A stretch of 64,000 nt of DNA, taken from assembly GCF_048403405.1 (NCBI RefSeq), contig NZ_CP183131.1; one strand, written 5' to 3'. Shown here in pieces: positions 51,217-64,000 of this stretch. How positions within the stretch are numbered: the first letter of the stretch is position 1; every line of letters begins with the position of its first letter. Source of the DNA: Escherichia coli (GTDB lineage Bacteria; Pseudomonadota; Gammaproteobacteria; Enterobacterales; Enterobacteriaceae). The notes beneath the pieces are model-generated. The model saw only the letters and a list, made by a program, of their open reading frames with translations. It was not told the DNA's origin and ran no database searches. A program made the position numbers and the translations under genes.

Positions 51217-51411
51217 ACTTCAAACTGCAAGTATAAAAAAAGGCCAGCTATTGCTGGCCTTTACGTTCATTATCGCAGTTACTCTTTAGGCGTTGTGATG
51301 CTTTTTTTCCTTCTGTTTCTCATGGTAGAGATACAGACTGCCGCCAGTGACGACAGTGAAAAAAATGAGCAACCCCAACATGCCTAATGTGAAAGCGTCC
51401 ATTTGACCCCC

Positions 51412-51651
51412 TTAGGAATTGCTGACCTTGGTTAAGATTATACCATAGATCCACAGGATAACCCCAATGACCAACACCAAACCGGCTTCTTTGACGGTTA
51501 TAGTGTCCCCAGATACAGCCAATCCTACAATACCGACACCGATGGCTGTTACGGCGACCTTACGCAGGTCTTCACCGATAGCTCCCAGAGTCTTCTTGTC
51601 AGGAGAGAAAAGACGCACAAACCACGTCTTAATACGCAAAAACTTTTTCAT
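51412..51651 (-). CDS. small membrane protein
   Basis: Start MKKFLRIKTW at 51651 after GGAGGTAATC. Two TM segments. Last gene of the long minus-strand block. Confidence 0.5.
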   Translation of the reverse strand: MKKFLRIKTWFVRLFSPDKKTLGAIGEDLRKVAVTAIGVGIVGLAVSGDTITVKEAGLVLVIGVILWIYGIILTKVSNS

Positions 51652-51723
51652 GATTACCTCCATAGTTGAAGAGGAGGCGAATCATGCCCGAGAGGGCATG
51701 AACACCCCCTCAGGGTTAAAGTT
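51652..51723 (-). promoter_or_regulatory. structured leader, instance 1 (TAACCC box + SD-sequestering stem)
   Basis: Minus strand: TAA-AACTT-TAACCCTGAGGGGG, CATGCCC-TCTC-GGGCATG hairpin, then CCTCC...GGAGG pairing the SD. Confidence 0.5.
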
Positions 51724-52002
51724 TTAGGCAGACAAAGCTGTTGGCTTCGCCTTGTTCATCTTCATTGAGTTAATGATCTTCGTCGCTTCATCAGCAAACG
51801 GGCCAGTAACTTGGATAGGCTCCCTTCTTGCGAAGGAGGCTGTCACCATCATTCTCTGGCCGTGCATCAGATGACGATACCGAGACCGCATAAGCTCAAC
51901 GTAGGCCGCAGAGTCCCCCTCCCACCCCTCAGGGGGAGAAAAGGGGCACACCGCGTCGTTACCAGGCGTTGTATCAACCTTCGAGACATCAATGACGGCC
52001 AT
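51724..52002 (-). CDS. hypothetical protein
   Basis: Start taken at MAVIDVSKVDT (52002), 14-nt overlap with the primase stop. 92 aa. Confidence 0.45.
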   Translation of the reverse strand: MAVIDVSKVDTTPGNDAVCPFSPPEGWEGDSAAYVELMRSRYRHLMHGQRMMVTASFARREPIQVTGPFADEATKIINSMKMNKAKPTALSA

Positions 52003-53716
52003 ACTCAGCTCTCCTTCTCGCAATGAAATCGCGCAGGTAGCGAGCATTCGGGAAACCGAGGCTTCCCTGACTCATCAGGACATCGTTCCAGTCAATCCCT
52101 TTCGCTCTGGGCGGGATCGGGAGTTTAGGCAGCAGGACGTACACACGAATGCCGCGCTTCTCCAGCTTGGCTTTCAGCACGTTCGCTGACTTCTCACCAG
52201 TCACAGACTTATCTTTGTCAGCCCAGATCAGTACGGTGTGAACACCTTCTGGAACCTCGAAGGACTCCATCAGGGTCGCATTGACCGTTGACCAAACCGG
52301 GATTTGAGTGACTCGATAAGCTGACAGGGCTGTTTCCAGCCCTTCTGCAACACCCAGGATACCCTCAGTCGGTTCACCGAGGCGGATGGCCGCGCCATTG
52401 ACATCCAAACCGTCAGGAATGGGCATCATCTTCTTGGCGTTGCCGACCTTGGCTTTTTTACCGTTTTGGGTGAGATAGGTGCGGTGGAGCGTTACCAGGT
52501 TGCCTTCCACATCTCGGATAGCGCAGACGATAGCCGGGAATTTCCCAACTTCATTGCCATCTTCGTCGTAGTAGGCCATAGCCGGATTGAACCGCAGACA
52601 GTCTGTTTTTTCTACTTCATCAACCTTGAACAGAAGCTCGCGGTTTTTGAAGTACAGACGCATTGGCTCAGTCACATGACTGGAGAACGGCAAACACTCG
52701 TTCCATACCTTCTCGATTTTCTCACGGAGACGAGCACTGTAAGCGCGTTCGCGCTCCATTCTCTTCTCCATTTCTTCTTGGAGCTCAAGCAGCCAAGGCT
52801 TAGGTTGTTCACGAAACATCGGAACAACTTTCGGCTTGTTTTCGCTGCTTTGCTCTTCCGGTTGTGTGGCCGCATGTTGTACTTGCGGTGCCGGAGCTTC
52901 TACCGTGCGGTTGACCACAGGGGCCGACTCAACATGGTGACTCACCGGCTCAACACCACCGTTCGAGCGAGCGCGGAACTGCGTTACCGTAGCGCCGCGA
53001 CGTTCCACCAGCCAGGTGTTGCGATGCGTTTGCATAGGTTGTTCTCTCACAACATTCCCCTGCTCGTCCTTAACTTCAACGACGACAGTTACAGGCTCGC
53101 GCCCGAGGTTTGTCATGACGATCTCATCCCCATACTTGGCTTCACTTTCACCAATGGCTCTTTCAAGATCCACGCCCCAGATGGTGCGTTCCAAACCGCT
53201 CTTGTCACGGATGAAGGCAAAGTAGCTGAGCTCGTTGTCTTCGTTATGCTCATAAGGAGCTTTACCGTGGGCAATCAGAGTACCGGCAATGGATTTTTTA
53301 CGATTCTTGGAATCGAGAACCTTGTTATTCACCTTCATAGGCTCTTGCTGAACAGGCGCTTTGGCCTGGACAGGAGCTCGTGTCGGTGCAGCGGCTTGTT
53401 GATACTGGGGTTGCTCTTTCTCAACGCCCAGATAATCACCAACCTCGCTCAGGCACTGTTTAAAGTCCCAGTTATTGAGCCACATCAGCAGCTCAAAACC
53501 ATCATGATTGGCACCGCATGTATTGCATACGCCGCCACCAGTCAGGTGGGCATCCTTGAACAGTCGGAAGCCATCTTTCCCGCCGTGGATAGGACAAGAA
53601 ACATGACGACCAGGTTTACGGAGAGCTGGTTCAAGATGGGGCGCTAGGGCCGCCAGGATGAATAGCCAGTTTCCGTTTGCAGCTTCACGAACGGTGTCAG
53701 CTTTGTAGTAAGACAT
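51989..53716 (-). CDS. pri: DNA primase (zinc-ribbon + Toprim)
   Basis: Start MSYYKAD at 53716 after AAGGAGAAAACCT. P4-type primase zinc ribbon HVSCPIHGGKDGFRLF...GGVCNTCG. C-terminal Toprim GVAEGLETALS...LIWADKDKS. Confidence 0.75.
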   Translation of the reverse strand: MSYYKADTVREAANGNWLFILAALAPHLEPALRKPGRHVSCPIHGGKDGFRLFKDAHLTGGGVCNTCGANHDGFELLMWLNNWDFKQCLSEVGDYLGVEKEQPQYQQAAAPTRAPVQAKAPVQQEPMKVNNKVLDSKNRKKSIAGTLIAHGKAPYEHNEDNELSYFAFIRDKSGLERTIWGVDLERAIGESEAKYGDEIVMTNLGREPVTVVVEVKDEQGNVVREQPMQTHRNTWLVERRGATVTQFRARSNGGVEPVSHHVESAPVVNRTVEAPAPQVQHAATQPEEQSSENKPKVVPMFREQPKPWLLELQEEMEKRMERERAYSARLREKIEKVWNECLPFSSHVTEPMRLYFKNRELLFKVDEVEKTDCLRFNPAMAYYDEDGNEVGKFPAIVCAIRDVEGNLVTLHRTYLTQNGKKAKVGNAKKMMPIPDGLDVNGAAIRLGEPTEGILGVAEGLETALSAYRVTQIPVWSTVNATLMESFEVPEGVHTVLIWADKDKSVTGEKSANVLKAKLEKRGIRVYVLLPKLPIPPRAKGIDWNDVLMSQGSLGFPNARYLRDFIARRRAEYGRH

Positions 53717-53893
53717 AGGTTTTCTCCTTAGCGTGAACCCCAGCATCGAGGCTTCCTTAAACCCCCGTCGCCAGGGTTTTAAGGAAACCCCGACACCGGG
53801 AGAATGTGCCAAGGAGGCTCCCCAGCCGGGGAGAACTCCCCGGCGAGGGGTTTAAAAAGGTCGCCCCCGAAACGGAGGCGAATTTTGTGAATA
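53717..53893 (-). promoter_or_regulatory. structured leader, instance 2 (double box, preceded by terminator-like hairpin)
   Basis: Minus strand: CGCCTCCG-TTT-CGGGGGCG + CCTTTTTAAA, then TTTAAACCCCTCGCCGGGG and TTAAAACCCTGGCGACGGGGG boxes. Confidence 0.45.
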
Positions 53894-54280
53894 TCACAAG
53901 CACAAATGAGTGCCATCTTCCGAGGCCATCATGATTGTGACATCTGCGGTTACAGGATCTGACTTAATCACAACCTCAGTGGGTTTGAAAAAGCCATCTA
54001 CAGTGGGCATGGGGTAATAAAGACGAATCTTTCCCCAATTCTTGTTGTCGGTAAAAGCGACCTTTGTTTGAGCAACACAAAGCTGCAAAAACATGAAAAG
54101 GAAGTCTTCTACCGAGTGCTTACCATCTGCACCAAATACTCCATCGACAATTGCCGGGGTCACTGCCACATTGGTCAGGAAACCAGCTTGTTTACCGATG
54201 GAAGATTGGTCCACCAGCAGACCATCATTGATGGCTTGTTGACGGATTTGGGCGAGGTCCAATTTAGCTACTTGGTTCAT
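53894..54280 (-). CDS. hypothetical protein
   Basis: 128-aa ORF preceded by structured leader instance 3. No motif recognised. Confidence 0.5.
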   Translation of the reverse strand: MNQVAKLDLAQIRQQAINDGLLVDQSSIGKQAGFLTNVAVTPAIVDGVFGADGKHSVEDFLFMFLQLCVAQTKVAFTDNKNWGKIRLYYPMPTVDGFFKPTEVVIKSDPVTADVTIMMASEDGTHLCL

Positions 54281-54386
54281 AAGGTGTACTCCAAAGTTAA
54301 TGGGTACACCTACCCCGTGCGGGGAAGTGTACCCGCATGGGTTATTGAAAGGTCACGGCCAAAGCCGAGCTTTAAGGTTCCGAGTT
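54281..54386 (-). promoter_or_regulatory. structured leader, instance 3
   Basis: ATAACCCATGCGGG. Alternative stems TGCGGG/CCCGCA, GGGTACAC/GTGTACCC, and GGTGTAC.../...GTACACC (covers the SD GGAG). Confidence 0.5.
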
Positions 54387-54533
54387 TTACGCTGGCTGAA
54401 TGCGCCAAAGAACGGTCGGAGGAAACGAGTCAGCGACACGCTTCACATTCGCGTAAAGAGTGTCCTTAAAGACACGCTCTAAGCGACGACCACCTTGACG
54501 ATAAACCAACTTAAAGTCTTGGAATTTGTTCAT
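54387..54533 (-). CDS. small basic hypothetical protein (48 aa, below ORF-track cutoff)
   Basis: Manual translation MNKFQDFKLVYRQGGRRLERVFKDTLYANVKRVADSFPPTVLWRIQPA*. The ATG is preceded by GGAGGTATCC and a full structured leader. Confidence 0.4.
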   Translation of the reverse strand: MNKFQDFKLVYRQGGRRLERVFKDTLYANVKRVADSFPPTVLWRIQPA

Positions 54534-54737
54534 GGATACCTCCAGAAATAACGGGAGGTATCTCCAGCAGGAGATAGACTCCCGCAGGGATTAATAAATT
54601 AACGTTAATTTGCTGTTTGTTTTTGGCGACCAGCTATCGCACGCTTTCGCCCTCAGGGAGGACAAAATCTGCTTACTGATGGCTTAACCATGAGTAAGAA
54701 GACTTGGGAAGTAAAGCAGGGGTTTCCCCCTGCCTTG
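54534..54737 (-). promoter_or_regulatory. structured leader, instance 4, plus promoter-like box and terminator-like hairpin
   Basis: Minus strand order: GCAGGGGGAAACCCCTGC-TTTACTT (54716-54733), GTGCGATAGCTGGTCGCCAAAAACAAACAGCAAATT (54607-54642), TTAATCCCTGCGGG, then GATACCTCC/GGAGGTATC SD stem. Confidence 0.5.
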
Positions 54738-55589
54738 TTATGCCGCTTTGAGGTGGCGAGAGAAAAAGTCCCTGGTTTGCTGGATAGCGCCCCGGAGAAG
54801 TTCTCGTCTGTAGCCAGCGTAGCTCTTGTCATCACTGGCAACGGTCAAGCCGTGCAGACTCTCTTCACCCAGGACAATCTCGTTTTCACGAGAGAGTACC
54901 TCAACACGTAGGCCAAGCACTCGCTCTTTCCCTTCCAGGATAGAACAAATTGTTTGGTCTCTTACTTCGTCATCCCAGTGGCCCATATCGAAATCCCGCT
55001 CAGGGAGTTCAGTAACACGCACCAGGTAGTTTTCAGTGGCCCGTTCCCAAACCACTTCATCTTCGCATGGAGAGGCCTCGATCAGCGAGTACCCGTCCGC
55101 TTCGAGCTTCTTGGAAAGACTTTTTACATCATCCGCCAGCTCCAGCACAAAGCGTTCCCAGAGGTCTTGCCAGCGCTCGACCATATCCTGGTTAATCCCT
55201 TCAATGCCGGTGCCAATCATGGAATCATCATCAGGGAAGATCCCTGTGAAGTCCACGTTGTCGTCGATGTTCATGCAGTTCCAATGGCTGTAGTGATGCC
55301 CGTGACTATTCCGAGTAATGGACAGGTCACAGGAACCATATTCGCGGAGGACAGAAAGCATATTCTCAATGTCTTTCTGTGCCATCAGGTTCTTCACGCG
55401 GCTGACAGCATCCACTTGGCCGGGCTCAGTGCTGAATAGGCGATTCATGAGAGCTTTGACGTCATCAACGCTCAAATCCCCGTAGAAGGCTACGCCATCC
55501 CCCTGGCAGTATCCGAGACTGTACTCAATCGTCAGATCATCCGGGTATCCACACTTAACCAGTTCGTTTTGAAAATGCTGTTTAATCAT
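54738..55589 (-). CDS. hypothetical acidic protein
   Basis: Start MIKQHFQNELVK at 55589 after AAGGAGATACCA. 283 aa. No motif recognised. Confidence 0.5.
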   Translation of the reverse strand: MIKQHFQNELVKCGYPDDLTIEYSLGYCQGDGVAFYGDLSVDDVKALMNRLFSTEPGQVDAVSRVKNLMAQKDIENMLSVLREYGSCDLSITRNSHGHHYSHWNCMNIDDNVDFTGIFPDDDSMIGTGIEGINQDMVERWQDLWERFVLELADDVKSLSKKLEADGYSLIEASPCEDEVVWERATENYLVRVTELPERDFDMGHWDDEVRDQTICSILEGKERVLGLRVEVLSRENEIVLGEESLHGLTVASDDKSYAGYRRELLRGAIQQTRDFFSRHLKAA

Positions 55590-55663
55590 TGGTATCTCCT
55601 TAATTTCAGAGGGAGACACCATCCCCTCAGGGACCGATGTCCCCCGTGGGGTTAATGTTTGGG
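55590..55663 (-). promoter_or_regulatory. structured leader, instance 5
   Basis: TTAACCCCACGGGGGACATCGGTCCCTGAGGGG hairpin. GGGGGACA/TGTCTCCC alternative. GGTGTCTCC/GGAGATACC SD stem. Confidence 0.5.
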
Positions 55664-56221
55664 TTAAGAAGCCTTGCGGTTTAATTCAGTATCAAATCGA
55701 GGACCTTTGAGAACCGCAGTTTTCATAACCTCGAAGTTTCTTGGGTAACGCAGCTTTGAAACTGCGCCAGCTCGGATGTCGGCAGCCTCACTTGGAGAGA
55801 CTAGCCTTAACCCTTCGCTGGTTTCAGCGTAGAACCAACCGGCATAACGCTCATAGGCATTCTGCTGGTACTGTTCAGTCGCCATATTCTTCCGGATCGC
55901 CTCTGTTAAGGCCTCAACAACACCGTCATCTTTCGTGATGATGTTGAAAACATGAGAGACGGTCAGGAAGTTCCCAAAGAAGCAGGCTGCCCCAAGCCAA
56001 GGCTGGAACATTTCGCCATTTCGCCCCGTCCTCACCATTGGTTCAAACGGGTATGGGCGATAACAGTGATACTGCTCAAACATCGGGTCAAGAACGTTGT
56101 CACCCAGGACATCCAGTAAAGTCTGAATGCTGTCCGGGTCTTGGCCTGCCCACTTACTCCCATTGCTGAGAATCAGTGTTTTACCGTCAGTACGCTCCAG
56201 AGCTTGTTCAAAGTTAGACAT
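55664..56221 (-). CDS. hypothetical protein
   Basis: Start MSNFEQALERTDGK at 56221 after AAGGAATGCACT. The longer track ORF reads through the leader. 185 aa. Confidence 0.5.
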   Translation of the reverse strand: MSNFEQALERTDGKTLILSNGSKWAGQDPDSIQTLLDVLGDNVLDPMFEQYHCYRPYPFEPMVRTGRNGEMFQPWLGAACFFGNFLTVSHVFNIITKDDGVVEALTEAIRKNMATEQYQQNAYERYAGWFYAETSEGLRLVSPSEAADIRAGAVSKLRYPRNFEVMKTAVLKGPRFDTELNRKAS

Positions 56222-56294
56222 AGTGCATTCCTTTTGGTTAGGACGCACCACACCCTCTCGGGATGATGCGCCCGAGTGGGTTAGTTGAGAAGGC
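56222..56294 (-). promoter_or_regulatory. structured leader, instance 6
   Basis: CTAACCCAC-TCGGG-CGCATCAT-CCCGA-GAGGG hairpin. GGGCGCA/TGCGTCC alternative. GTGCGTCCT/AGGAATGCAC SD stem. Confidence 0.5.
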
Positions 56295-56513
56295 TTAGCC
56301 GTCAAGTCCGTAAATTACGGCGGAGCCGGGCTCCATCTCGACAACTTGTGCGCTTCCTTCTTCTATCAGCTCCTGCATGTAACCAGACTCAGCATCCGGA
56401 TTACGTTCGCAGTGTTCGTCCCAGCGTTTCAAAAGCCCTTCTGTGGCTTGTCCGTGGGTCTCACCAAGGCCGATAAACTCATAGTGTCCTGTGTTTACGA
56501 TGATCACCACCAT
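56295..56513 (-). CDS. small hypothetical protein
   Basis: Start MVVIIVNTGHYEF at 56513 after AGGAGAGCACTAGCT, downstream of the stop at 56527. 72 aa. Confidence 0.45.
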   Translation of the reverse strand: MVVIIVNTGHYEFIGLGETHGQATEGLLKRWDEHCERNPDAESGYMQELIEEGSAQVVEMEPGSAVIYGLDG

Positions 56514-56526
56514 AGCTAGTGCTCTC

Positions 56527-56796
56527 CTACAGGTCACTTGGTACATACAGGTCATCTTTGATGGCAGAAAAATCGACAGGAGACTGGTCCCCATAGGTTC
56601 GATTCACGCCACCAGCATCATCGACACTGACAAAAACCGTGCGGAGTAAACCGCTGGGCTTTGCAGGGTAAACGATGCTGACATGCTGACCTTTGTACTG
56701 TTCTGACAAAGTGCTTTGAAGCTCATCAACCGAACGGAATTTCCGGTCGCGGCCAAAGTCCTTAATCTTGATGTCGCCAGGGATTGGATTAGTCAT
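56527..56796 (-). CDS. hypothetical protein
   Basis: 89-aa ORF overlapping the HD-domain gene stop by 8 nt. Confidence 0.5.
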   Translation of the reverse strand: MTNPIPGDIKIKDFGRDRKFRSVDELQSTLSEQYKGQHVSIVYPAKPSGLLRTVFVSVDDAGGVNRTYGDQSPVDFSAIKDDLYVPSDL

Positions 56797-57394
56797 CGTT
56801 ACCCCCTGCCAGCAGTTTATCTACTGAATGGCCGAGTCCGTTACCAAACCATTTGTCCAGAGCGTCGATTTCCGGGAAGTCCGATTTCACCTGAGCAACA
56901 ACACGTTCCATTTTGCTGAGAGCATCCTGGAACTCAAGGCCATTACCTGCGGCCACCTCAAGTTTGCACTTGATGTAAGCGGAGTAGGTATCACAGGCCT
57001 TAACCAGTGATTGTTCATAGCCACCGGGAGCGAAGGCTATGGCGACTGCATCCTGGAGTTCTTCGGGAAGAGTCTGGATGAGTTTGTCCTCTGCGGCCTT
57101 TTCCAGTCGTTCAAACTCACGCTGCAAAACAGCGTTTGCTTTCTTGACCGGTGTTACAACATCCGAACAGAGAACCTCGGCTGCATCATGCAACGAAGCA
57201 TGAGCAAGCATGACTGCCAGATCCACCGACTTCCCTTGCTGAATGGCAATATTGCCAGCCAGGTAGGAAAGCAGGGTAACAACAGCGCTGTGTTCCAACA
57301 CAGACTCCGGTTGAACAGAGTGCATCAGTGACCAGCGTTTGATCAGGCGTTGGCGCAAGGCCAGAGCTAGAAAGCCGAAATTTGAATTAGACAT
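56789..57394 (-). CDS. HD-domain phosphohydrolase (YfbR-like 5'-nucleotidase family)
   Basis: 201 aa. H...HD...E/D pattern: VLEHSAVVTLL, MLAHASLHDAAEVLCSDVVTPVKK. Confidence 0.7.
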   Translation of the reverse strand: MSNSNFGFLALALRQRLIKRWSLMHSVQPESVLEHSAVVTLLSYLAGNIAIQQGKSVDLAVMLAHASLHDAAEVLCSDVVTPVKKANAVLQREFERLEKAAEDKLIQTLPEELQDAVAIAFAPGGYEQSLVKACDTYSAYIKCKLEVAAGNGLEFQDALSKMERVVAQVKSDFPEIDALDKWFGNGLGHSVDKLLAGGNDD

Positions 57395-57465
57395 AGTGCC
57401 TCCAAAATTGGTTGGAGGTACACCAAAGCCGACCGGGCCTTGGTGTACCCGGTTGGGTTACTTAG
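57395..57465 (-). promoter_or_regulatory. structured leader, instance 7
   Basis: GTAACCCAACCGGG. ACCGGG/CCCGGT, GGTACACCAA/TTGGTGTACC and CCTCCAA/TTGGAGG (SD) stems. Confidence 0.5.
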
Positions 57466-57669
57466 TTATCTCGGGTCAAGCTGCTTAGCTATAGCGAGTA
57501 AAAACGGATGGAATGGATGATCTTGCGGGACACCCCCAACAAGCTCACGGGCTAAACCGACTGAGTTTGTAGCCAACACCTCTTTGACGGCCAGAATGAT
57601 TTCATTGTCGATTTCATCCTGGGTCTTTCGTTGTTGGTCCACCAGCCGACTTAACTTGTCTAGGCTCAT
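57466..57669 (-). CDS. small hypothetical protein
   Basis: 67-aa ORF preceded by a leader with the perfect 8-bp SD stem TTCTCTCC/GGAGAGAA. Confidence 0.5.
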   Translation of the reverse strand: MSLDKLSRLVDQQRKTQDEIDNEIILAVKEVLATNSVGLARELVGGVPQDHPFHPFLLAIAKQLDPR

Positions 57670-57840
57670 GCTTCTCTCCTTTGTTTGTGGGAGAGAACCC
57701 AGGAGGGGTTTCCTCCCGAGGGGTTAGGTTATTGCTGTTTTGGGCCAGCTACCGTTATAGCCAGCAAGCGCTGACAATGAACAAAGAGTATGACAGCCAC
57801 CTAAAAGGGTAAAACGCTGTAATTGCCCTTTTGGGGTGCA
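57670..57840 (-). promoter_or_regulatory. structured leader, instance 8, plus promoter-like box
   Basis: After the terminator at 57841-57870: CGGTAGCTGGCCCAAAACAGCAAT (57731-57754), CTAACCCCTCGGGAGGAAACCCCTCC, then the SD stem. Confidence 0.5.
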
Positions 57841-57870
57841 AAAGAAAAAGCCCTCCCGAAGGAGGGCTTT
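57841..57870 (-). terminator. rho-independent terminator after the DndC-like gene
   Basis: Minus strand: TAA-AAAAGCCCTCC-TTCG-GGAGGGCTTTTTCTTTT. Confidence 0.8.
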
Positions 57871-60324
57871 TTATGCGGCCAAGGACAAGCCTTGCTGTCC
57901 TCTTTGCAACTCTGTGTCGTCGCGGCGATGTAAGCGTTGAACCGCCTTGATCATCGTTCTGACATGTCGCTCCAAAGAGGCTGGATGGCGTTTTGACAGT
58001 AGGTTGATCCAGTCGAGATAGATAGCAAGCGCGGAACCTTCGGTTAGGGCTGCCTGTATCGCCTCATACTGCCCTACGGCACTCTGGACCACATCATTCA
58101 CCCACTGGGCGTCAGTATTGTCCAAGAGCTCGCAGAGGGCCGTATAAGCCTTCCTTCTGGTCGCGGCCATGTAACGACGAATGTTGGCGTTTCCGCTCCC
58201 CTCTCGCCCTTCCATGACGCTCATACAGAATGCGCTGGAGTAACAAAGCATCGCGTCAGTCACGTAGTTAAACCATCGCTCCTGATGCCGTTTCTGTTCT
58301 TCCATTGCTTCCTGGTCAAGTTGCTTCTCGATGAACAACCCCGTCGGAGTACGGTGGTGCAGATGGTACTTGAACGTTAAGTGCAAGTTGACCCACCAGC
58401 GTACCGTTGCCAGTCTTCCCTTGATTTTTCGCTTCACCAGATCTTTGTACTTAGCATCGCTAAGCACTTTGACATCCTTGCGCTGTTGGATTCCTTCCAT
58501 CGTCTGTAGCCCTGTAAGGCCCATCTGGTGGTAGGTTTGACCTCTTTGCATCATACGGTGATACAAAGCGCCTTTTCCTTTCGCAAGCTGGATTGCTCCG
58601 AACCGAAGGTAGAACTGCGCTGCACTACCGGGCGTATAATGTCCCTTTAGTACAGACTCCCTTAGTCGCGGGTATTCGTTCCAGATGATGAACGCAGCGG
58701 AGTCGGGATCGACTTTCACTTCATCATCTTCTGCGAAGCAAACCACCCTTCTCTTTCCGTCTGCGGTATTGATCACTTGCGCTGCCAACGGGTCATCCCC
58801 GCCGTCAAAGTAAGCCATTTCCGCTAACGGATCGGCCAAGCCATCAGAAAGCGAACCATCGCCCCAGCGACCAACCTTCAACCACAATGGCTTCGGAATT
58901 GGTGACTGAGGAACGGTTTCACACTGCGGCTCGTCTTCCAGCAAGTCCAGATCACCCATCGACCAAACCCTGTGGTAAATCTCCAGGGCATGGAAAGGCT
59001 TATCATTGAAATGATGGAAGGCCCACATGAAGTCGATATGGACTAAAGCCTCTTCCGATATGATCCGGAATTGTGGCTCTGCCATTCGACGGTTCCAGTC
59101 GTTATCCTCTGCTTGACCAGTAGCCAGCTTGTATGCCAGCTCATCAGCTCTCTTTTGCTCCATGTAGTCCATGCTGCAACAGACATGAAGCAATCGTTCT
59201 AGGAAAACAGGACTGTAAACGTCCGGCTGTATTTTGATGTATCCGCCCTCGTAAATCGTTCGACCTACGGGATGGCGGTCTTCCCATGCGTACCGGCGTT
59301 TTGCCAAGTAGCGCTGGATGCGGTTCAGCCCCGACATATAGCCATGCCTTTCAGGGTCCGTGGCAAGCAACGTCTCCATTGACTTATCCAACCCAACAGC
59401 CTGGCAAGCCCAGCAACCGAAGCGAGCGCCACAGGCGTCACTGGCCTTCTTCTCTGTTGCCGACCACACGCACTCCCCTGTTGCCGCCTTGTAAAGCTCT
59501 GCCGTAGTGACATTGCTCTCCAAGTAACTTGGCAGAGGATATGCTGAGCCCATGCCAGCGGATAGTAAGAACTCCCAGACATCACTCGCCAACCAGTTTT
59601 TCACCACATACAGCTCACCCCCATCTTTCGTCTTAATGACGCGATCTGAGCTTCCTCGCTGTTTTGCAATGTTGGCCGCACGAATAGTGCTTTCAGCATC
59701 ACGACTGCCCAGCAAAAGGCAGACTTTCTGTCGAACCTCTTTGGGAAGCTCTCGCATATAAGCTGCCTTCGCTCTTTTGGCAGAGGTGATTTTTAAATCC
59801 TGGCTACACTGGCGGGCCGTGGAGTTGGAAAACGTAGGCAACCCCCTCCCAGTAAGGATTCGGCCCGTCCAACTCTGCGAGATCCCAGGCTTTGCTAGAA
59901 CGATGGTCAGAGGAAGGTTTTCCTTCGCAATGAAACGCTCCAGCTCGGCCAGTTTCTGATCCGCCAGCCACCTTACCTCTGGGCTTTCGATCAGTGTGTC
60001 AGTGTGCAAGATGAAGTGGTGCTGGCTGATGGTCGCCCCACTCCTTACAGCCCGGATCAGGGCCATCAGGAACAGGTGCAAGACCGTTTCAGAATCTTTA
60101 CCACTGGAATAGCCGATCATCATGGTCCACCCATCAATTAAGGCCGTGTGAATGGACTCAACCGATGACGTGATCAACGATGACAGACTGGTTCCTCTAC
60201 TGGCATCAACGAAGTTCAAATCCTCGTTATCAGTCAGTTCTGACCAAACAGAATCCCACTTATCCCCACGCAAAAGCACTGGGATGGGTTGTTCTGATAG
60301 ATCAAAGTTTAATGTTTGTTGCAT
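57871..60324 (-). CDS. large DndC-like PP-loop/PAPS-reductase-family protein
   Basis: 817 aa. PP-loop GYSSGKDSE near residue 70. Cys motif CGARFGCWACQAVGLDKSMETLL as remembered for DndC-type sulfurtransferases. The about 450-aa C-terminal extension has no recognised domain. Confidence 0.65.
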   Translation of the reverse strand: MQQTLNFDLSEQPIPVLLRGDKWDSVWSELTDNEDLNFVDASRGTSLSSLITSSVESIHTALIDGWTMMIGYSSGKDSETVLHLFLMALIRAVRSGATISQHHFILHTDTLIESPEVRWLADQKLAELERFIAKENLPLTIVLAKPGISQSWTGRILTGRGLPTFSNSTARQCSQDLKITSAKRAKAAYMRELPKEVRQKVCLLLGSRDAESTIRAANIAKQRGSSDRVIKTKDGGELYVVKNWLASDVWEFLLSAGMGSAYPLPSYLESNVTTAELYKAATGECVWSATEKKASDACGARFGCWACQAVGLDKSMETLLATDPERHGYMSGLNRIQRYLAKRRYAWEDRHPVGRTIYEGGYIKIQPDVYSPVFLERLLHVCCSMDYMEQKRADELAYKLATGQAEDNDWNRRMAEPQFRIISEEALVHIDFMWAFHHFNDKPFHALEIYHRVWSMGDLDLLEDEPQCETVPQSPIPKPLWLKVGRWGDGSLSDGLADPLAEMAYFDGGDDPLAAQVINTADGKRRVVCFAEDDEVKVDPDSAAFIIWNEYPRLRESVLKGHYTPGSAAQFYLRFGAIQLAKGKGALYHRMMQRGQTYHQMGLTGLQTMEGIQQRKDVKVLSDAKYKDLVKRKIKGRLATVRWWVNLHLTFKYHLHHRTPTGLFIEKQLDQEAMEEQKRHQERWFNYVTDAMLCYSSAFCMSVMEGREGSGNANIRRYMAATRRKAYTALCELLDNTDAQWVNDVVQSAVGQYEAIQAALTEGSALAIYLDWINLLSKRHPASLERHVRTMIKAVQRLHRRDDTELQRGQQGLSLAA

Positions 60325-60411
60325 AGGGCCTCCTGGATTAGCAGGGTGCCCATCCCTTCCGGGAAAGCACCCCGGTAGGGTTAAAATTGAATCCTGGCTA
60401 TCAGACCTGAA
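60325..60411 (-). promoter_or_regulatory. structured leader, instance 9 (cut from its upstream gene by the IS3-family element)
   Basis: TTAACCCTACCGGGGTGCTTTCCCGGAAGGG hairpin. GGGTGC/GCACCC alternative. GGGCACCCTG/CAGGAGGCCC SD stem. Confidence 0.5.
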
Positions 60412-61640
60412 TGAATCGCCACGGGTTTAACAGACACCTCAGAGTCATTTAAGATGGCTTAAAGAGAGGTGCCCATGAGCGGTAAGCGTTATCCCGAAGA
60501 GTTTAAAATTGAAGCAGTCAAACAGGTTGTTGATCGCGGTTATTCTGTTGCCAGCGTTGCAACACGTCTCGATATCACCACCCACAGCCTTTACGCCTGG
60601 ATAAAGAAGTACGGTCCGGATTCTTCCACTAATAAAGAACAGTCAGATGCTCAGGCCGAGATCCGCCGTCTCCAGAAAGAGCTGAAGCGGGTTACCGACG
60701 AACGGGACATATTAAAAAAAGCCGCGGCGTACTTCGCAAAGCTGTCCGACTGAGGTACGCCTTTATCCGTGACAACACCTGTTGCTGGCCTGTTCGCCTG
60801 CTCTGTCGGGTGCTGGATGTTCATCCCAGTGGTTTTTACGCCTGGCTTCAGCAGCCGCATTCACAACGCCATCAGGCAGACCTAAGACTGACAGGACAGA
60901 TTAAACAGTTCTGGCTGGAATCGGGATGCATCTATGGTTATCGCAAAATCCATCTGGATCTGCGGGACAGCGGGCAACAGTGCGGAGTGAACAGAGTCTG
61001 GCGACTGATGAAACGTGTCGGGATAAAGGCTCAGGTTGGATACCGGAGCCCGCGAGCACGTAAAGGCGAAGCCAGTATCGTGTCGCCCAACAGGCTCCAG
61101 CGACAGTTCAATCCGGATGCTCCGGATGAGCGTTGGGTAACGGACATAACCTACATCAGGACCCACGAAGGCTGGCTGTATCTTGCCGTGGTTGTTGATC
61201 TGTTCTCACGCAAAATTATCGGCTGGTCCATGCAATCCCGGATGACAAAGGACATTGTCCTGAACGCACTGCTGATGGCTGTATGGCGGCGTAATCCCCA
61301 AAAACAGGTGCTGGTTCATTCGGATCAGGGCAGTCAATACACAAGCCATGAGTGGCAGTCGTTCCTGAAATCACACGGCCTGGAGGGCAGCATGAGCCGT
61401 CGCGGTAACTGCCATGATAATGCGGTTGCAGAAAGCTTTTTCCAGTTGTTGAAACGCGAACGGATAAAGAAAAAGCTCTACGGAACGCGGGAAGAAGCCC
61501 GCAGCGATATTTTTGATTACATCGAAATGTTTTATAACAGTAAGCGTCGGCATGGTTCTAGCGATCAGATGTCACCGACAGAATATGAAAACCAGTATTA
61601 TCAACGGCTCGGAAGTGTCTAGATTATCCGTGGCGATTCA
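60412..61640 (+). mobile_element. IS3-family insertion sequence, 1229 bp
   Basis: IRs TGAATCGCCACGG... at both ends. orfA 60475..60753 (HTH). A7G slippery site at 60714-60721. orfB in the -1 frame to 61622 (DDE: WVTDITY, HSDQGSQY). 3-bp target duplication GAA (60409-60411, 61641-61643). Confidence 0.85.
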
Positions 61641-61643
61641 GAA

Positions 61644-62030
61644 CTAGCTGCTACTCGACATCTGGTTGTCTTCGTATTGCTGCTTGGCCTGTTTCACCAG
61701 ATCAATGTCACCGTCTTGCAGCTTTTGAATATCAAGCTGTAGACGAGCCTTGTGTTTCAACAGTTCAGCGACCGCATTATCAATGTGATCAATGAGCGAT
61801 TGGTTTTTTTGGATGGTGTAACTGTTGAGTTCATCGAGCAGGGGCCATGCAACACTCGAATGAGTGTTGAGCAATGGGTACTCTGCTTCGATCTCACAAA
61901 CCACACCGTTTGCTCCTTCTCTGTAATGAGGGAACCCGACACGCAGACCGATACGACGATCCAGCGCTGCATTTACAGTACATTCCAAAGAAGTTCGGTT
62001 TGAAAAAACATCGTTGACGTTTTTAGACAT
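61644..62030 (-). CDS. hypothetical protein
   Basis: 128-aa ORF with a C-terminal coiled-coil-like segment. Preceded by leader instance 10. Confidence 0.5.
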   Translation of the reverse strand: MSKNVNDVFSNRTSLECTVNAALDRRIGLRVGFPHYREGANGVVCEIEAEYPLLNTHSSVAWPLLDELNSYTIQKNQSLIDHIDNAVAELLKHKARLQLDIQKLQDGDIDLVKQAKQQYEDNQMSSSS

Positions 62031-62262
62031 GCTATATCTCCGTTCAGTTTATGACGGAGCCCCCCTAACAGGAGGTGCTCCCGTCAGGGTTGATAATTTG
62101 CTGTTTGTTTTTGGCAGCCAGCTACCGCACTTGAGCGCCTAAGGCACTTTCCGAAGCACCCTGGGAAACCGAGATGCTTGGGAAAGCGCGGGGTTTCCCC
62201 CTGCGCTGATTACCCTTTTTAAGGGGCCGGTACGCCGATTTCTCGGCGCACTCAGGTTGAAG
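62031..62262 (-). promoter_or_regulatory. structured leader, instance 10, plus promoter-like box and terminator-like hairpins
   Basis: GCGCAGGGGGAAACCCCGCGC-TTTCCC (62186-62206), GTGCGGTAGCTGGCTGCCAAAAACAAACAGCAAATT (62095-62130), TCAACCCTGACGGG, then CTCCGT/ACGGAG SD stem. Confidence 0.5.
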
Positions 62263-62817
62263 CTACACAGTCAAGAACCAACGTTTCATAGGGACGGTGA
62301 TGTCTATCATCCCGTTTCCACATGGATTCTGGCCCCAGAATCTGTAGGTCGTCTCATAGAAGTCAAACTCAGACAAGGACTGAATCTGCGCTTCTGAGAT
62401 CGGCTCAAATGGTCCACCGCAACCGATGTGCATATTGAGCCCATAATCTCGAAGCTCTAGCTCTCCGAGATTTAGCGTCTTCCCGCCCACACAAGCAACC
62501 AAGTTCTGGTTTCTGACGTCGCCTTCTTTGAACAGCAAAGCTGACTCATCGTAGCTCCCATATTGGTTGGTAAACTTCACAATATGCCCGTGCTTAGGTG
62601 AGGTTTGTTCCGACAACTCTTTCAGTAATCGCTTTACGCTTTGAAATCTCGCGTACAGAGCTGGCGTAAACTGCCCAGAGTAGTTCAAGTTTGGGCAGAT
62701 CATTTCAAGCATCTCATCAGGTACAGATTCAAGCCCCATTTGCGCGGCCAATGGCTTCGCCTTTTTCAGACCTTCCTCAAGCACTCTCTGATTTACAAGT
62801 TGTTCTAATGTGTTCAT
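62263..62817 (-). CDS. hypothetical protein
   Basis: Start MNTLEQLVNQ at 62817 after GGAGAGTCAA. 184 aa. Confidence 0.5.
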   Translation of the reverse strand: MNTLEQLVNQRVLEEGLKKAKPLAAQMGLESVPDEMLEMICPNLNYSGQFTPALYARFQSVKRLLKELSEQTSPKHGHIVKFTNQYGSYDESALLFKEGDVRNQNLVACVGGKTLNLGELELRDYGLNMHIGCGGPFEPISEAQIQSLSEFDFYETTYRFWGQNPCGNGMIDITVPMKRWFLTV

Positions 62818-62890
62818 TTGACTCTCCACTTTCGAGAGAGCAATGCAAGCCGTCTCCGGACTTACATTGCCCGTTAACGGCTTTATTGGT
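62818..62890 (-). promoter_or_regulatory. structured leader, degenerate instance 11
   Basis: GTTAACGGGCAATGTAAGTCCGGAGACGGCTTGCATTGC hairpins. CTCTC/GAGAG pairing over the SD. The box is degenerate. Confidence 0.35.
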
Positions 62891-63322
62891 TTATCCCAAG
62901 AGGTACGGAGCTACGCCAGTCAGGAAGCCCATGACTCCCAACACAGCGCCAACCACGCCCAATTTGATTGACAGTTGGACACTTTGATCCGGATGGTTCC
63001 AGAACCACTGCCAGACTTCCCAGCGCCTGGCTCTGCGAACCTCAAGATTTACAGTGTCTTTAAAACGAACACCCAGAGCATCTACCGCATCGTAATCCAG
63101 CGCGACCGCCAGCTTTGTGATGGATAAATTCCCAGGGTTGCCCATCGCATACCGGAGAACCTTTGCTTTGGTCTCTGGGTTTACGATCATAACCGGCTCC
63201 CTCCTGAAAAAACGGGTCTTGTCTTTTCGCTTGGAATCCATGTTGCGGTTATGGAACCTGGCAATGCAGTGTTGAAGGCCTGAATCCTCGGGAGGTAAAG
63301 GCACAACAGTTTCGATTTTCAT
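62891..63322 (-). CDS. hypothetical protein with C-terminal TM helix
   Basis: Start MKIETVVPLPPED at 63322 after AAGGAGAGTAATC. C-terminal LGVVGAVLGVMGFLTGVAPYLL. Confidence 0.5.
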   Translation of the reverse strand: MKIETVVPLPPEDSGLQHCIARFHNRNMDSKRKDKTRFFRREPVMIVNPETKAKVLRYAMGNPGNLSITKLAVALDYDAVDALGVRFKDTVNLEVRRARRWEVWQWFWNHPDQSVQLSIKLGVVGAVLGVMGFLTGVAPYLLG

Positions 63323-63382
63323 GATTACTCTCCTTTCGGATAGGCCGGAGCAAAGGCCTTTCGGCATTGCCCCGGTGAGTTA
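63323..63382 (-). promoter_or_regulatory. structured leader, degenerate instance 12
   Basis: GTAACTCACCGGGGCAATGCCGAAAGGCCTTTGCTCCGG. CTCC...GGAG pairing over the SD. Confidence 0.35.
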
Positions 63383-64000
63383 CTAATGAACCAAAGATGA
63401 AGTGACCATGATTGCGTCTCCGGACATCATTACCGGGAGATATTCGCAAGGCTCATGGCCGCAGCTCTTTTTAGTTCCGTTAGGTGAATAGACAGCCAAT
63501 TGACCATCCATAATGTTGAAGGGCATCCCCTGTTTTTTCGCTGCCGGTGACAGCTTGAGAGTGCCCTTTGCGTCAACCAATGCCGTTGCCCAATGGAAGT
63601 CTTCACCACCGATCACCGGCTGTGATTCATCCACGACTTCGACCATGATTGGCATCATTCCAACCCAGCTCCACAGGCTGTTCCCTAATGCGAGGGCTAA
63701 AGCCTCGAACGCGGGAAAGACTACCGATTGCCCGAGAATCTGGTGGGCAATAGTGTCCGACAGACCTTGGATGAGTTCCTCTGGTATCCCTTTCACTCGA
63801 CAATGTTCTGTCGGTGTAAAGATGCGAGACAACTCCGGCTGTTCTGGATGAACAATGAAAGGTTCGGTACTTCTGCATTTTGCATAGTCCTTACCTATGG
63901 TGCCGCAAAACTCATCGTCGCCAGTCAGAAGCTGGCGAGAGAACCCCTTGCCAGCAGCTTTGTCTCTCAACTCCTTCTCAGCCAGATAGTCAAATGACTT
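63383..64000 (-). CDS. DNA (cytosine-5)-methyltransferase-like protein, partial (5' end beyond window)
   Basis: Reading frame open to the window edge. C-terminal MTase-like motifs RIFTPTEHCRVKGIPEELI (motif IX-like) and HQILGQSVVFPAFEAL (motif X-like, GQSV instead of GNAV), followed by an extra domain of about 100 aa. Confidence 0.5.
   Translation of the reverse strand, partial: KSFDYLAEKELRDKAAGKGFSRQLLTGDDEFCGTIGKDYAKCRSTEPFIVHPEQPELSRIFTPTEHCRVKGIPEELIQGLSDTIAHQILGQSVVFPAFEALALALGNSLWSWVGMMPIMVEVVDESQPVIGGEDFHWATALVDAKGTLKLSPAAKKQGMPFNIMDGQLAVYSPNGTKKSCGHEPCEYLPVMMSGDAIMVTSSLVH

Follow-up and report, generated by a model that had tools for sequence, protein, structure and literature searches.

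Translation that becomes active through RNA processing is known from the T7 RNase III sites and the lambda N leader. For IncC plasmids, Roy et al. (2020; PMC7498323) devoted one sentence and one supplementary figure to a structure sequestering the ribosome-binding site before vcrx089, and the rptI repeats of the same study contain some of the leaders treated below. RT-PCR further demonstrated that a single mRNA covers vcrx087 to vcrx094, and a vcrx089-090 deletion is polar on ssb/bet/exo and cannot be complemented (PMC7498323). No Rfam family matches the leader, and the first-pass annotation was nearly right in knowing of no description, apart from this structure and these repeats.

The window, i.e., the whole 64-kb stretch of DNA analysed here, is IncC plasmid backbone, and the region of interest, all genes of which are coded by the minus strand, shows 100% identity to IncC plasmids such as NZ_CP031122. 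When every gap between 51.6 and 63.4 kb was read on this coding strand, a leader was present in 10 clear and 2 degenerate gaps. Three genes of the interval are leader-free, each of them starting by overlap or after a gap of at most 13 nt. The array does not end at 63.4 kb but extends ~16 kb past the window to a divergent promoter adjoining traN (locus L001). The leaders combine an AACCC box, which is invariant, with hairpin H1, built in two tiers, and hairpin H2, which pairs the Shine-Dalgarno (SD) sequence and the start codon, and a second conserved hairpin with the loop UAGCUGG (motif 2) is found 5' of operon-first leaders. The features of the window are as follows, with z denoting fold energy relative to dinucleotide shuffles:

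51239-51262, minus strand: strong intrinsic-terminator-like hairpin plus T-run, 3' of the last leader-bearing genes
51649-51722, minus strand: leader of the gene starting at 51651; AACCC box, H1 at 51687-51722, H2 pairing SD and AUG; CM match; z = -6.9
53717-53893, minus strand: complex leader of the primase (toprim) gene; a terminator-like hairpin is followed by two H1-like units in tandem, at about 53820-53856 and 53738-53782
53881-53861, minus strand: terminator-like site in the primase leader
54278-54348, minus strand: leader of the gene starting at 54280; H1 at 54314-54348, alternative pairing GGGUACAC/GUGUACCC; CM match; z = -5.4
54531-54600, minus strand: operon-first leader of the gene starting at 54533; UAAUCCC as variant of the box; z = -5.1
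54613-54636, minus strand: motif 2 adjoining the 54533 leader on its 5' side; 4-bp stem with covariation, loop UAGCUGG without variation, followed by the AAAAACAAACAGC tract
55587-55658, minus strand: leader of the gene starting at 55589; CM match of 26.5 bits; z = -3.3
56219-56287, minus strand: leader of the gene starting at 56221; CM match; z = -4.8
57392-57464, minus strand: leader of the gene starting at 57394; folds best into the alternative hairpin GGUACACCAA/UUGGUGUACC, with a local SD hairpin persisting; CM match; z = -4.6
57667-57730, minus strand: leader of the gene starting at 57669 (vcrx114 homologue), 3' of an AcaCD-dependent promoter and the motif-2 variant GGTAGCTGGCCCAAAACAGC; CM match; z = -4.0
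60322-60387, minus strand: leader of the 817-aa PAPS-reductase-like gene starting at 60324; CM match of 26.7 bits; z = -3.6; an IS3-family element lies in its upstream linker
62028-62096, minus strand: operon-first leader of the gene starting at 62030; box CAACCC; CM match; z = -4.5
62101-62124, minus strand: motif 2 copy upstream of the 62030 leader; GCGG-TAGCTGG-CTGC plus CAAAAACAAACAGC
62815-62890, minus strand: degenerate leader without AACCC box; GGGCAAUG as mimic, CAUUGC as anti-start arm, SD stem formed by CUCUC/GAGAG; z = -4.8
63320-63385, minus strand: degenerate leader following the dcm stop; GUAACUCA as box, mimic and anti-start arm pairing in a long hairpin; z = -3.4

The two last-named leaders correspond to the degenerate copies suspected near 62870 and 63377-63383, and the one at 62815-62890 keeps the logic of the others, while gaps past the terminator-like hairpin at 51239-51262 carry no leader. 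The recurrence itself is real and larger than first reported. The pattern AACCC-N1-7-SGGG-N14-30-GGG gave 18 matches on both strands of the 64-kb window, equalling nine distinct minus-strand sites and one plus-strand site, all within 51.6-62.1 kb, compared to 1.23 +/- 1.34 matches in shuffled windows (at least 18 in 0/100 shuffles), and all 11 leaders tested folded far better than their dinucleotide shuffles (z between -3.3 and -6.9). In a complete IncC plasmid, 25 of 26 matches lie on the coding strand, all inside one block, and a search of the entire 120-kb plasmid revealed no leader outside it. This block makes up 28 kb of the resistance plasmid, includes CRISPR-evasion and restriction-evasion genes, and nearly every one of its genes, all AcaCD-dependent at the RNA level, is preceded by a leader, with 25 leaders on one IncC plasmid. 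The family also occurs in pAQU1, in an Aeromonas plasmid and at 14 genomic loci, one of them at least in a Betaproteobacterium, again on the gene strand (91 of 103 matches in 14 other loci).

The boxes were found where they had been placed (e.g., TAACCC at 51713-51718), but the proposed consensus (T/C)TAACCC holds only for AA and CCC, with A at -2 in 83/83 and at -1 in 78/83 leaders, whereas T is present in only 46/83. A hairpin does follow the box as described, yet it is two-tiered, since the CCC of the box itself pairs with a GGG beyond the inner hairpin. In order, the segments are the AACCC box (a); a mimic made of CGGGG and a copy of the start-codon-adjacent sequence (b); CCCC(G) (c); GGGG (d); an anti-start arm composed of the start-region complement and a CUCC anti-SD (e); and the real SD and AUG (f). 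As prediction and covariation show, in the modelled closed state a:d and b:c make H1 while e:f makes H2 and buries SD and AUG, and in the modelled open state c:d caps a long b:e hairpin, leaving box and start region single-stranded, with an inner SD hairpin remaining in some leaders. The SD-sequestering terminal stem claimed by the annotation belongs to the minimum-free-energy structure of 21/25 IncC leaders, and the mutually exclusive pairing turned out to be general, as in 22/25 the first ~48 nt, which precede synthesis of the start region, fold best into the alternative long hairpin. According to the folding model, the closed state has the lowest energy overall and is what co-transcriptional folding is expected to yield.

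The arms, said to differ while staying complementary, indeed co-vary between leaders. Cognate duplexes are predicted to be more stable than non-cognate ones both for mimic:anti-start (-14.5 vs -9.7 kcal/mol) and for anti-start:start (-13.8 vs -8.7 kcal/mol), and 0/20000 permutations reached either specificity in the 25 IncC leaders or in 83 leaders from 14 elements, a set that includes orthologues and is hence not fully independent; the control pairing b:f showed no significant cognate specificity. In orthologous leaders, b, e and f change together (IncC vs pAQU1; vcrx089 and DUF3150 leaders). In the H1 alignment, itself fitted to the model, the inner stem shows covariation (40-51 double changes for each pair) and the outer CCC:GGG stem is invariant; AACCC and this outer stem are unchanged over 90 distinct copies, found in Gammaproteobacteria as well as Betaproteobacteria. 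In 57/83 leaders, the fold of the sense strand is better than that of the antisense (p = 0.011), and 160 G-U pairs account for 8% of the pairs. With the box alone masked, opening of the start region is predicted to cost 5.3 instead of 9.2 kcal/mol, roughly as much as in ordinary genes on that plasmid (6.1 kcal/mol), and the response is weaker in non-cognate chimeras (2.4 vs 3.9 kcal/mol; p = 1.7e-4). Sequestration in the modelled closed state would be moderate, not extreme, at 9.2 kcal/mol compared to 6.1 kcal/mol in the plasmid's other genes. On the direct path, the barrier is high whichever way the fold changes (about 14.5 and 24 kcal/mol), which implies that an active trigger is needed.

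From these sequence comparisons and modelled folds, we consider it highly probable that the leader is an RNA-level translational switch. That each copy acts in cis as a two-state translational leader on the polycistronic mRNA of the AcaCD-activated accessory block, the ribosome-opened variant included, has roughly an even chance of being the full account, and the ribosome as the trigger is a tentative proposal. The conserved G/C runs would represent a chain of complementarity leading back from the SD (GGAG, CUCC, GGGG, CCCC, GGGG, CCC). Whatever unpairs or covers the box alone would set d free to pair with c, upon which b would be released, take e and expose the start site. The likeliest agent may be a ribosome, which in about a quarter of the leaders would terminate at a stop inside the box (UAA/UAG-CCC) and in the remaining ones would linger or stand by either on the G-poor, A/U-rich linker 5' of the box or, within motif 2, on the A/C-rich tract. 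As a net outcome, a cistron would be translated only if ribosomes were already engaged just upstream.

The coupling switch envisaged in the first-pass annotation persists as an attenuator-like RNA element, but its terminating-ribosome trigger lacks general support. The upstream stop abuts the box (0-1 nt) in 19/63 leaders by an ORF heuristic, with start and stop codons of the 83-leader set being heuristic assignments and at least one stop, that of ssb in pVCR94, probably wrong; by annotation this applies to 5/25 leaders in the IncC plasmid and six gaps in pAQU1. Few stops lie 2-10 nt away (5/63), about 22 lie at 11-19 nt, past the roughly 9-10 nt downstream reach of a ribosome, and another 18 beyond 20 nt, so that a terminating ribosome cannot reach the box in about 40/63 leaders. 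Operon-first leaders have no upstream gene or ORF, no conserved leader peptide exists, and a candidate uORF in the rptI repeat, to which the motif 2 at 54613-54636 belongs by spacing arithmetic, is disrupted by an indel between copies. The 5' flank of the leaders is depleted in G. Only 16/83 mimics contain AUG, and the invariant AA before CCC is accounted for neither by pairing nor by a stop-codon role (CAA/AAA in 34/83).

Since structure gives no reason for this AA, a dedicated trans-acting protein or a GGGUU-seed small RNA might read the single-stranded AACCC of an otherwise identical two-state RNA, and perhaps the motif-2 hairpin, thereby opening or locking all ~27 leaders at once as a global regulator of translation in the block. 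Box and CCC:GGG stem are invariant in sequence where other helices covary freely, operon-first and distant-stop leaders would be covered equally well, and motif 2, with its covarying stem and invariant loop, resembles a protein-binding hairpin. Most block proteins belong to no known family and could thus include an RNA binder; however, no RNA-binding domain is recognisable in the 30 block proteins scanned, the non-coding parts of the block hold no GGGUUA-bearing sRNA candidate, and a multi-partner pairing chain explains the invariant C/G runs without any factor, so that we regard this as unlikely. Quite improbable, from our point of view, is a selected role at the DNA level, in which direct repeats at gene boundaries would provide microhomology for Bet/Exo single-strand-annealing repair and module shuffling, with deletions always rejoining leader to gene. 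Every copy has the direct orientation, remnants of boxes lie beside boxes (TAACCCAAACATTAACCCC), which suggests junctional recombination, and Roy et al. (2020; PMC7498323) obtained scars that Bet/Exo repair had left between copies of rptI: the deletions of 9268, 10310 and 23702 bp in that study equal distances among the motif-2/leader copies mapped on pVCR94 (65115, 66157, 75425, 89859), and a 14076-bp scar joins the vcrx089 leader to a near-identical one at about 80.27 kb. Most leaders, however, have only about 10-15 nt in common, and the leader-specific three-way complementarity, the SD/AUG pairing and the G-U asymmetry would be left unexplained; repeat recombination probably does take place as a secondary use, without being what selection acts on.

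Two further readings, among them the priming-signal and promoter proposals of the annotation, fared worse. That the stable, strand-specific hairpins serve conjugation as ssDNA, as ssi priming signals for the plasmid primase encoded in the block or as single-strand promoters, is hardly credible, as the block (65-93 kb of pVCR94) lies about 65 kb from oriT/mobI (at ~0) and is thus not leading region, the short hairpins lack promoter hexamers and are fixed to start codons with SD and AUG within the helix, and their G-U pairs would be weak as G-T in DNA. Individual promoters or terminators, which the intergenic location might suggest, are just as implausible: no sigma-70-like match occurs at any leader (13 kb contain two where 9.6 would be expected, and these fall within or next to the IS element), transcription starts have been mapped upstream of motif 2 and not at the boxes, H1 and H2 have no T-runs, and one mRNA runs through several leaders. 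Improbable, too, are processing or stability modules, in which an endonuclease would cut the A/U-rich linker or the AACCC junction, with loss of the box opening the leader permanently, H1 or the long alternative hairpin shielding the new 5' end and H1 the upstream 3' end. The G-poor, A/U-rich single-stranded flank adjoining a stable hairpin, the opening of the start region once the box is masked or removed in silico and the high barriers, which suit an irreversible trigger, agree with this; the published 5'-RACE table, however, has AcaCD promoters only, RT-PCR detected long intact transcripts, and the box is unlike the sites preferred by RNase E. Overall, the putative translational switch belongs to a leader family that is uncatalogued and present in distant mobile elements, and if its copies were opened by cleavage, they would resemble the T7 RNase III sites and the lambda N leader in their processing-activated translation.

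When every gap was read, the AACCC boxes and start-covering stems that the first-pass annotation had described on the minus strand before at least eleven consecutive genes were all recovered at their positions. The extent of the array had been drawn too narrowly, since there are 25 such leaders in L001, which extends the same plasmid beyond the window, running from the divergent promoter next to traN to the gene at 51412-51651 of the window. A strong terminator stands at 51239-51262, and the gaps past it carry no leader. In the 64-kb window, the pattern AACCC, 1-7 nt, SGGG, 14-30 nt, GGG is matched at nine places on the minus strand and one on the plus strand, which all fall within 51.6-62.1 kb, against 1.2 matches in shuffled sequence, and fold z-scores for eleven leaders range from -3.3 to -6.9. 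The leader is a real, highly non-random feature; it is conserved even between distant mobile elements, and Rfam has no entry for it.

Read 5' to 3' along the mRNA, each leader starts with a G-poor, A/U-rich flank, followed by the box (segment a, an invariant AA and then CCC(C)), a 2-4 nt spacer, segment b (CGGGG plus a variable segment), segment c (CCCC(G)), a 3-4 nt spacer, segment d (GGG(G)), segment e (a variable arm with a CUCC-like anti-SD end), a loop and finally segment f, which consists of GGAG, a variable segment and the AUG. In the predicted closed fold, the box pairs with d and b with c in a two-tier hairpin, H1 (-10 to -24 kcal/mol), while e pairs with f in a second hairpin, H2, that covers the SD and usually also the AUG. 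In the predicted alternative fold, b pairs with e under a c:d cap, which gives a hairpin of 12-16 bp (-16 to -28 kcal/mol) and leaves both the box and the start region unpaired. The closed fold is the best full-length prediction in 21 of the 25 leaders and the alternative fold in the other four; for the initial ~48 nt, the alternative fold is best in 22/25. Segment b is a decoy of the true start region: one leader has GUGCAUC in b and again in f, and another repeats GCGUGAC in the same way. The leader of the primase gene (window 53717-53893, minus strand) is unlike every other one in that it is unusually long, contains two tandem H1-like units and has a fold dominated by a 17-bp hairpin (UUUCCUUAAAACCC.../...GGGGGUUUAAGGAAGC).

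Segments b, e and f differ between leaders, and the duplex energy that each arm reaches with its cognate partner was set against that with the partners of other leaders. For the 25 IncC leaders, own and other partners gave -15.1 vs -10.2 kcal/mol for b:e and -14.6 vs -9.7 kcal/mol for e:f; for 83 unique leaders from 14 elements, the values were -14.5 vs -9.7 and -13.8 vs -8.7 kcal/mol, respectively. In neither set did any permutation reach the observed b:e or e:f value (0/20000 in each comparison), and the control pairing b:f was not significant, neither in the 25 nor in the 83 leaders. As MAFFT and RNAalifold found almost no structure in the raw leaders because this alignment is non-structural, a covariance model built from normalised seeds and the cognate/non-cognate energy tests were used in their place. 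Across 90 distinct H1 copies, aligned by fitting to the model, covariation is seen in the inner stem, two pairs of which have 40-51 double changes, and the outer CCC:GGG stem shows zero variation. The multi-partner pairing chain that starts from the SD explains the conserved G/C runs, but not the invariant AA. Folding is better on the sense than on the antisense strand in 57 of the 83 leaders (p = 0.011), and G-U pairs make up 8% of the leader pairs.

The region from 51 to 64 kb of the window, in which every gene lies on the minus strand, matches IncC (IncA/C2) plasmids, for example NZ_CP031122, at 100% identity and encodes a dcm methylase, a PAPS-reductase-like protein, a 5'-deoxynucleotidase, a toprim primase and many unknowns. 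Pfam assigns no family to 25 of the 30 proteins scanned in the leader-bearing block (window 51412-63970 and L001 18413-46909); those with a match are the primase, an AAA/CbbQ ATPase, a ferredoxin-like protein and a methylase fragment. On the IncC plasmid pVCR94, the entire block depends on the master activator AcaCD, being strongly transcribed in its presence and silent in its absence, and a single mRNA from vcrx087 to vcrx094 has been demonstrated by RT-PCR (PMC7498323). An IS3-family element at window ~60475-61622, missing from pVCR94, has inserted in the linker that follows the stop of the gene at 61644-62030 and precedes the next leader's box; it cuts this leader off from upstream translation. 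Beyond the window, an unannotated 30-codon ORF (MEIAIIALCIPTGWAISRPFVRIAESFGYC*; L001 46286-46588, minus strand) has a complete leader of its own, which suggests a real small membrane protein missed by annotation.

Across the whole of pVCR94 at E<=1, our covariance model R1, which covers H1 only, gave 26 matches, all within 65.2-92.8 kb and 25 of them on the coding strand. In pAQU1 (Bet 59% identical) and an Aeromonas plasmid, most genes of the syntenic block likewise have this architecture in front of them. Leaders are also present in the 14 genomic loci that a DUF3150 protein profile retrieved from Shewanella, Edwardsiella, Alcanivorax, Paraglaciecola, Vibrio, Azomonas, Marinobacterium, Halomonas and Comamonas testosteroni, where 91 of 103 matches fall on the gene strand. 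Rfam 15 returned zero gathering-score matches in the window or in loci L001-L004, and a permissive scan of the block (E<=1) gave unrelated weak matches only, away from the leaders.

A second conserved hairpin, motif 2, occupies the long gaps, where it precedes the box of operon-first leaders, i.e., those without a gene upstream, by 5-26 nt. The copies of motif 2 and the long gaps, which contain a direct repeat, are the following.

Motif 2 and long gaps with a direct repeat
Window 54613-54636, minus strand: motif 2
Window 62101-62124, minus strand: motif 2
Window near 57735-57760, minus strand: variant of motif 2
L001 21614-47031: seven copies of motif 2, with others in loci L002-L021
Window 54534-54737: long gap with direct repeat
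Window 57670-57870: long gap with direct repeat
Window 62031-62262: long gap with direct repeat
L001 37226-37489: long gap with direct repeat
L001 41046-41244: long gap with direct repeat
L001 45881-46099: long gap with direct repeat
L001 46910-47202: long gap with direct repeat

Motif 2 has a 4-bp stem and an invariant 7-nt loop, UAGCUGG, with AAAYAAACAGC directly after the hairpin; the search pattern dictated loop and tract, but not the covariation of the stem. In the stem, 98.3% of cells are paired, with double changes at all four pairs, compared with 27-56% when the partner is slid. The pattern occurs in 14 loci (IncC, pAQU1 and 12 others) at 1-7 copies per element (3-7 if one element is set aside) and on the gene strand in every case; on pVCR94 it is confined to these sites, and it has no Rfam match. 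The direct repeat of the long gaps (60-155 bp) comprises a terminator-like hairpin, more hairpins and motif 2, and 3-4 of its copies contain a perfect 16-bp palindrome, AAATTAACGTTAATTT, that looks like a candidate operator.

The same block was studied by Roy et al. (2020; NAR 48:8815, PMC7498323), who predicted a structure that hides the RBS of vcrx089, found that deletion of vcrx089-090 has a polar, non-complementable effect on ssb/bet/exo, and described the intergenic direct repeats rptIa-f, which by their account SXT/R391 lacks, as Bet/Exo substrates for single-strand-annealing repair. For a few copies, their object and ours are physically the same: motif 2 lies within the published rptI repeat, the spacing of rptIa-f matches that of the motif-2 and leader copies, and the distances between these copies on pVCR94 (75425-66157 = 9268; 75425-65115 = 10310; 89859-66157 = 23702) equal their repair deletion sizes (Table 1 of PMC7498323). 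This match is confined to the long-gap copies, whose repeat spacing corresponds to the Bet/Exo deletions, and to one near-identical pair of leaders joined by one scar class, and does not extend to the whole leader family. Leaders therefore serve as DNA microhomology at least sometimes, which cannot account for leader-specific three-way complementarity. Roy et al. (2020) treated the repeats as DNA and gave RNA structure one sentence for one gene; the family of ~25 per plasmid, the decoy and alternative fold, the AACCC box, the motif 2 hairpin and the spread outside IncC go beyond their account. Theirs is the only relevant study that we found in the searchable literature, which gave no account of the leader family, the decoy fold or the box; the initial statement that the element had not been described thus holds for these three, but not for the vcrx089 RBS structure and rptI (PMC7498323).

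Several other explanations were considered. Individual promoters, proposed in the first-pass annotation, do not fit, as no promoter hexamers were found at the leaders. A terminator reading was rejected as well: H1 and H2 have no T-run, no leader hairpin was called an intrinsic terminator, and the terminator-like sites (51262-51239, 53881-53861 and 54730-54718) lie elsewhere. The leader helices are too short for canonical RNase III sites. The GCTGG..CCAAAAAC sequence might be taken for an AcaCD box, but the published boxes and TSSs lie ~100 nt further upstream and in 3-4 gaps only. Single-stranded priming (ssi) signals, also raised initially, were abandoned because the block (65-93 kb of the 120-kb pVCR94) is distant from mobI/oriT at ~position 0 and hence is not a leading region. 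Integron attC sites are imperfect palindromes bounded by RYYYAAC ... GTTRRRY cores and recognised as bottom-strand ssDNA; the leaders have no GTT core at the 3' end, where the arm is the SD/AUG region of the next gene.

At the level of RNA, a riboswitch is disfavoured by the presence of two simple hairpins only, with freely varying loops and arms and AA(CCC) as the sole invariant single-stranded part, and a thermometer by an opening cost that declines smoothly with temperature and is not switch-like. A leader peptide would agree with an ORF of the rptI copies whose end coincides with the box stop, but its frame is disrupted by an indel between copies and it has no SD; the intercistronic leaders contain no leader-peptide ORF. 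A reading of the decoy as a genuine start site was rejected, with an AUG in only 16 of 83 mimics. No sRNA with a GGGUUA seed was found in the non-coding parts of the block, and Pfam gave nothing relevant to a plasmid RNA-binding protein in the 30 proteins. Lastly, a kinetic trap in the nascent transcript would make the leader open by default, but H1 forms first and faces a nested-path barrier of ~20 kcal/mol to the alternative fold, so that, on nested paths, the leader would be closed by default.

On the basis of sequence and modelled folds, the element is best explained as a probable two-state translational leader. The predicted ensemble cost of opening the start region (-13 to +5) is 9.2 kcal/mol in leaders compared with a mean of 6.1 kcal/mol for other plasmid genes (p = 0.0018). 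It falls to 5.3 kcal/mol when the box alone is forced unpaired, upon which many leaders are predicted to switch to the alternative hairpin, and chimeras with a foreign H1 respond more weakly. The direct-path barriers, estimated for paths free of pseudoknotted intermediates, amount to ~20 kcal/mol from H1 to the alternative, 14.5 kcal/mol from the alternative to the closed and 24 kcal/mol from the closed to the alternative fold. With barriers this high, the element would be bistable, closed by default after sequential folding and dependent on an active trigger.

As to this trigger, where the box directly continues the stop codon (UAA-CCC), a ribosome that has this codon in its A site would cover CCC and the spacer and spare b, as a relay requires. 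By annotation, this arrangement occurs in 5 of 25 IncC gaps and in 6 pAQU1 gaps; by an ORF heuristic, the stop lies 0-1 nt from the box in 19/63 leaders, rarely at 2-10 nt (5/63), at 11-19 nt in ~22/63 and at >20 nt in 18/63. In ~40 leaders, the stop is thus 11 to >50 nt upstream with no fixed frame, and operon-first leaders have no upstream gene at all. For the pVCR94 ssb gene, the heuristic sets the stop at a TGA fused to the box (L002 8553-8948 vs L001 43308-43401); the SSB C-terminus suggests that translation really ends 20 nt upstream at a TAA, the stop that the window's plasmid also has. The ssb stop was probably mis-set, and the stop-in-box counts may therefore be slightly inflated. In distant-stop and operon-first leaders, the A/U-rich linker or the A/C-rich tract of motif 2 could hold a lingering or standby ribosome. 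A trans factor or endonucleolytic removal of the box may equally be the trigger there. As the stop position explains some leaders only and several triggers are possible, our confidence in the RNA-switch reading is high and that in any one specific trigger low.

One could speculate, although we regard it as rather doubtful in its entirety, that the leaders form an unrecognised class of translational switch, in which a start-site decoy and a C/G clamp pass on, over ~40 nt, whether a ribosome or an unknown factor sits on a 5-nt box, and thereby open the start site. Placed before ~25 consecutive genes, such relays would have the 28-kb multi-operon block for anti-defence and DNA metabolism in IncC, pAQU1 and relatives translated as a chain or all-or-none, with the UAGCUGG hairpin priming the initial cistron of every sub-operon. 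IncC plasmids and their relatives are major carriers of multidrug resistance, and the block, whose expression comes with the activation of transfer by AcaCD, includes the hde operon (restriction and CRISPR evasion, ssb/bet/exo) along with methylases, the primase and dozens of unknown genes. Should the leaders gate translation, they would represent an unstudied layer of post-transcriptional control of plasmid establishment and possibly account for puzzling polar effects in published mutants, although that of vcrx089-090 hints only indirectly at dependence on upstream translation and could also be explained by Rho polarity. With ~25 paralogous copies per element, hundreds across elements, one bistable design and built-in three-way covariation, the leaders constitute a natural experiment well suited to test how ribosomes or factors flip RNA switches, and they might serve as portable expression insulators.

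Compared with known systems, the leaders as modelled resemble ermC/cat translational attenuation in that exclusive hairpins bury SD and AUG in the ground state and covering a 5' segment reroutes pairing and frees the start site. Unlike ermC/cat, they have no conserved leader peptide, stalling signal or drug, are repeated before ~25 unrelated genes, and would relay through a start-region mimic and an extra C/G clamp (a:d, c:d) instead of a simple 1:2/2:3/3:4 scheme. With coupling by RNA unfolding (MS2 coat-replicase/lysis, f1 VII-IX, repY-repZ of IncI/IncB; PMC12548453) they share a downstream start predicted to be silenced by structure, and a ribosome finishing upstream might relieve it here too; in repY-repZ the position of termination triggers an RNA rearrangement (reviewed in PMC12548453). 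The leaders differ in that stop and start are +57 to +90 nt apart and the inhibitory hairpin lies entirely beyond the upstream ORF, so that a relay would be needed, and in that the stop is within reach of the ribosome in only about a quarter of them. Long-lived alternative folds with high barriers, as predicted for the leaders, decide start-site exposure in the hok/sok mRNAs and the MS2 maturation gene, but there via 5'-3' long-range pairing, processing or nascent-chain timing and for a single gene, and the leaders are predicted to be closed by default on sequential folding. As in phage cassettes (T4 PeSL, T7 RNase III sites), a structured element is repeated at many gene boundaries of a mobile genome and possibly marks module junctions, but the leaders lack promoter hexamers, have shorter helices and include the SD and AUG. 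Overall, start-site sequestration with an anti-sequestering alternative is known in kind; the proposed decoy-and-clamp relay, its mass repetition and the partner hairpin are new.
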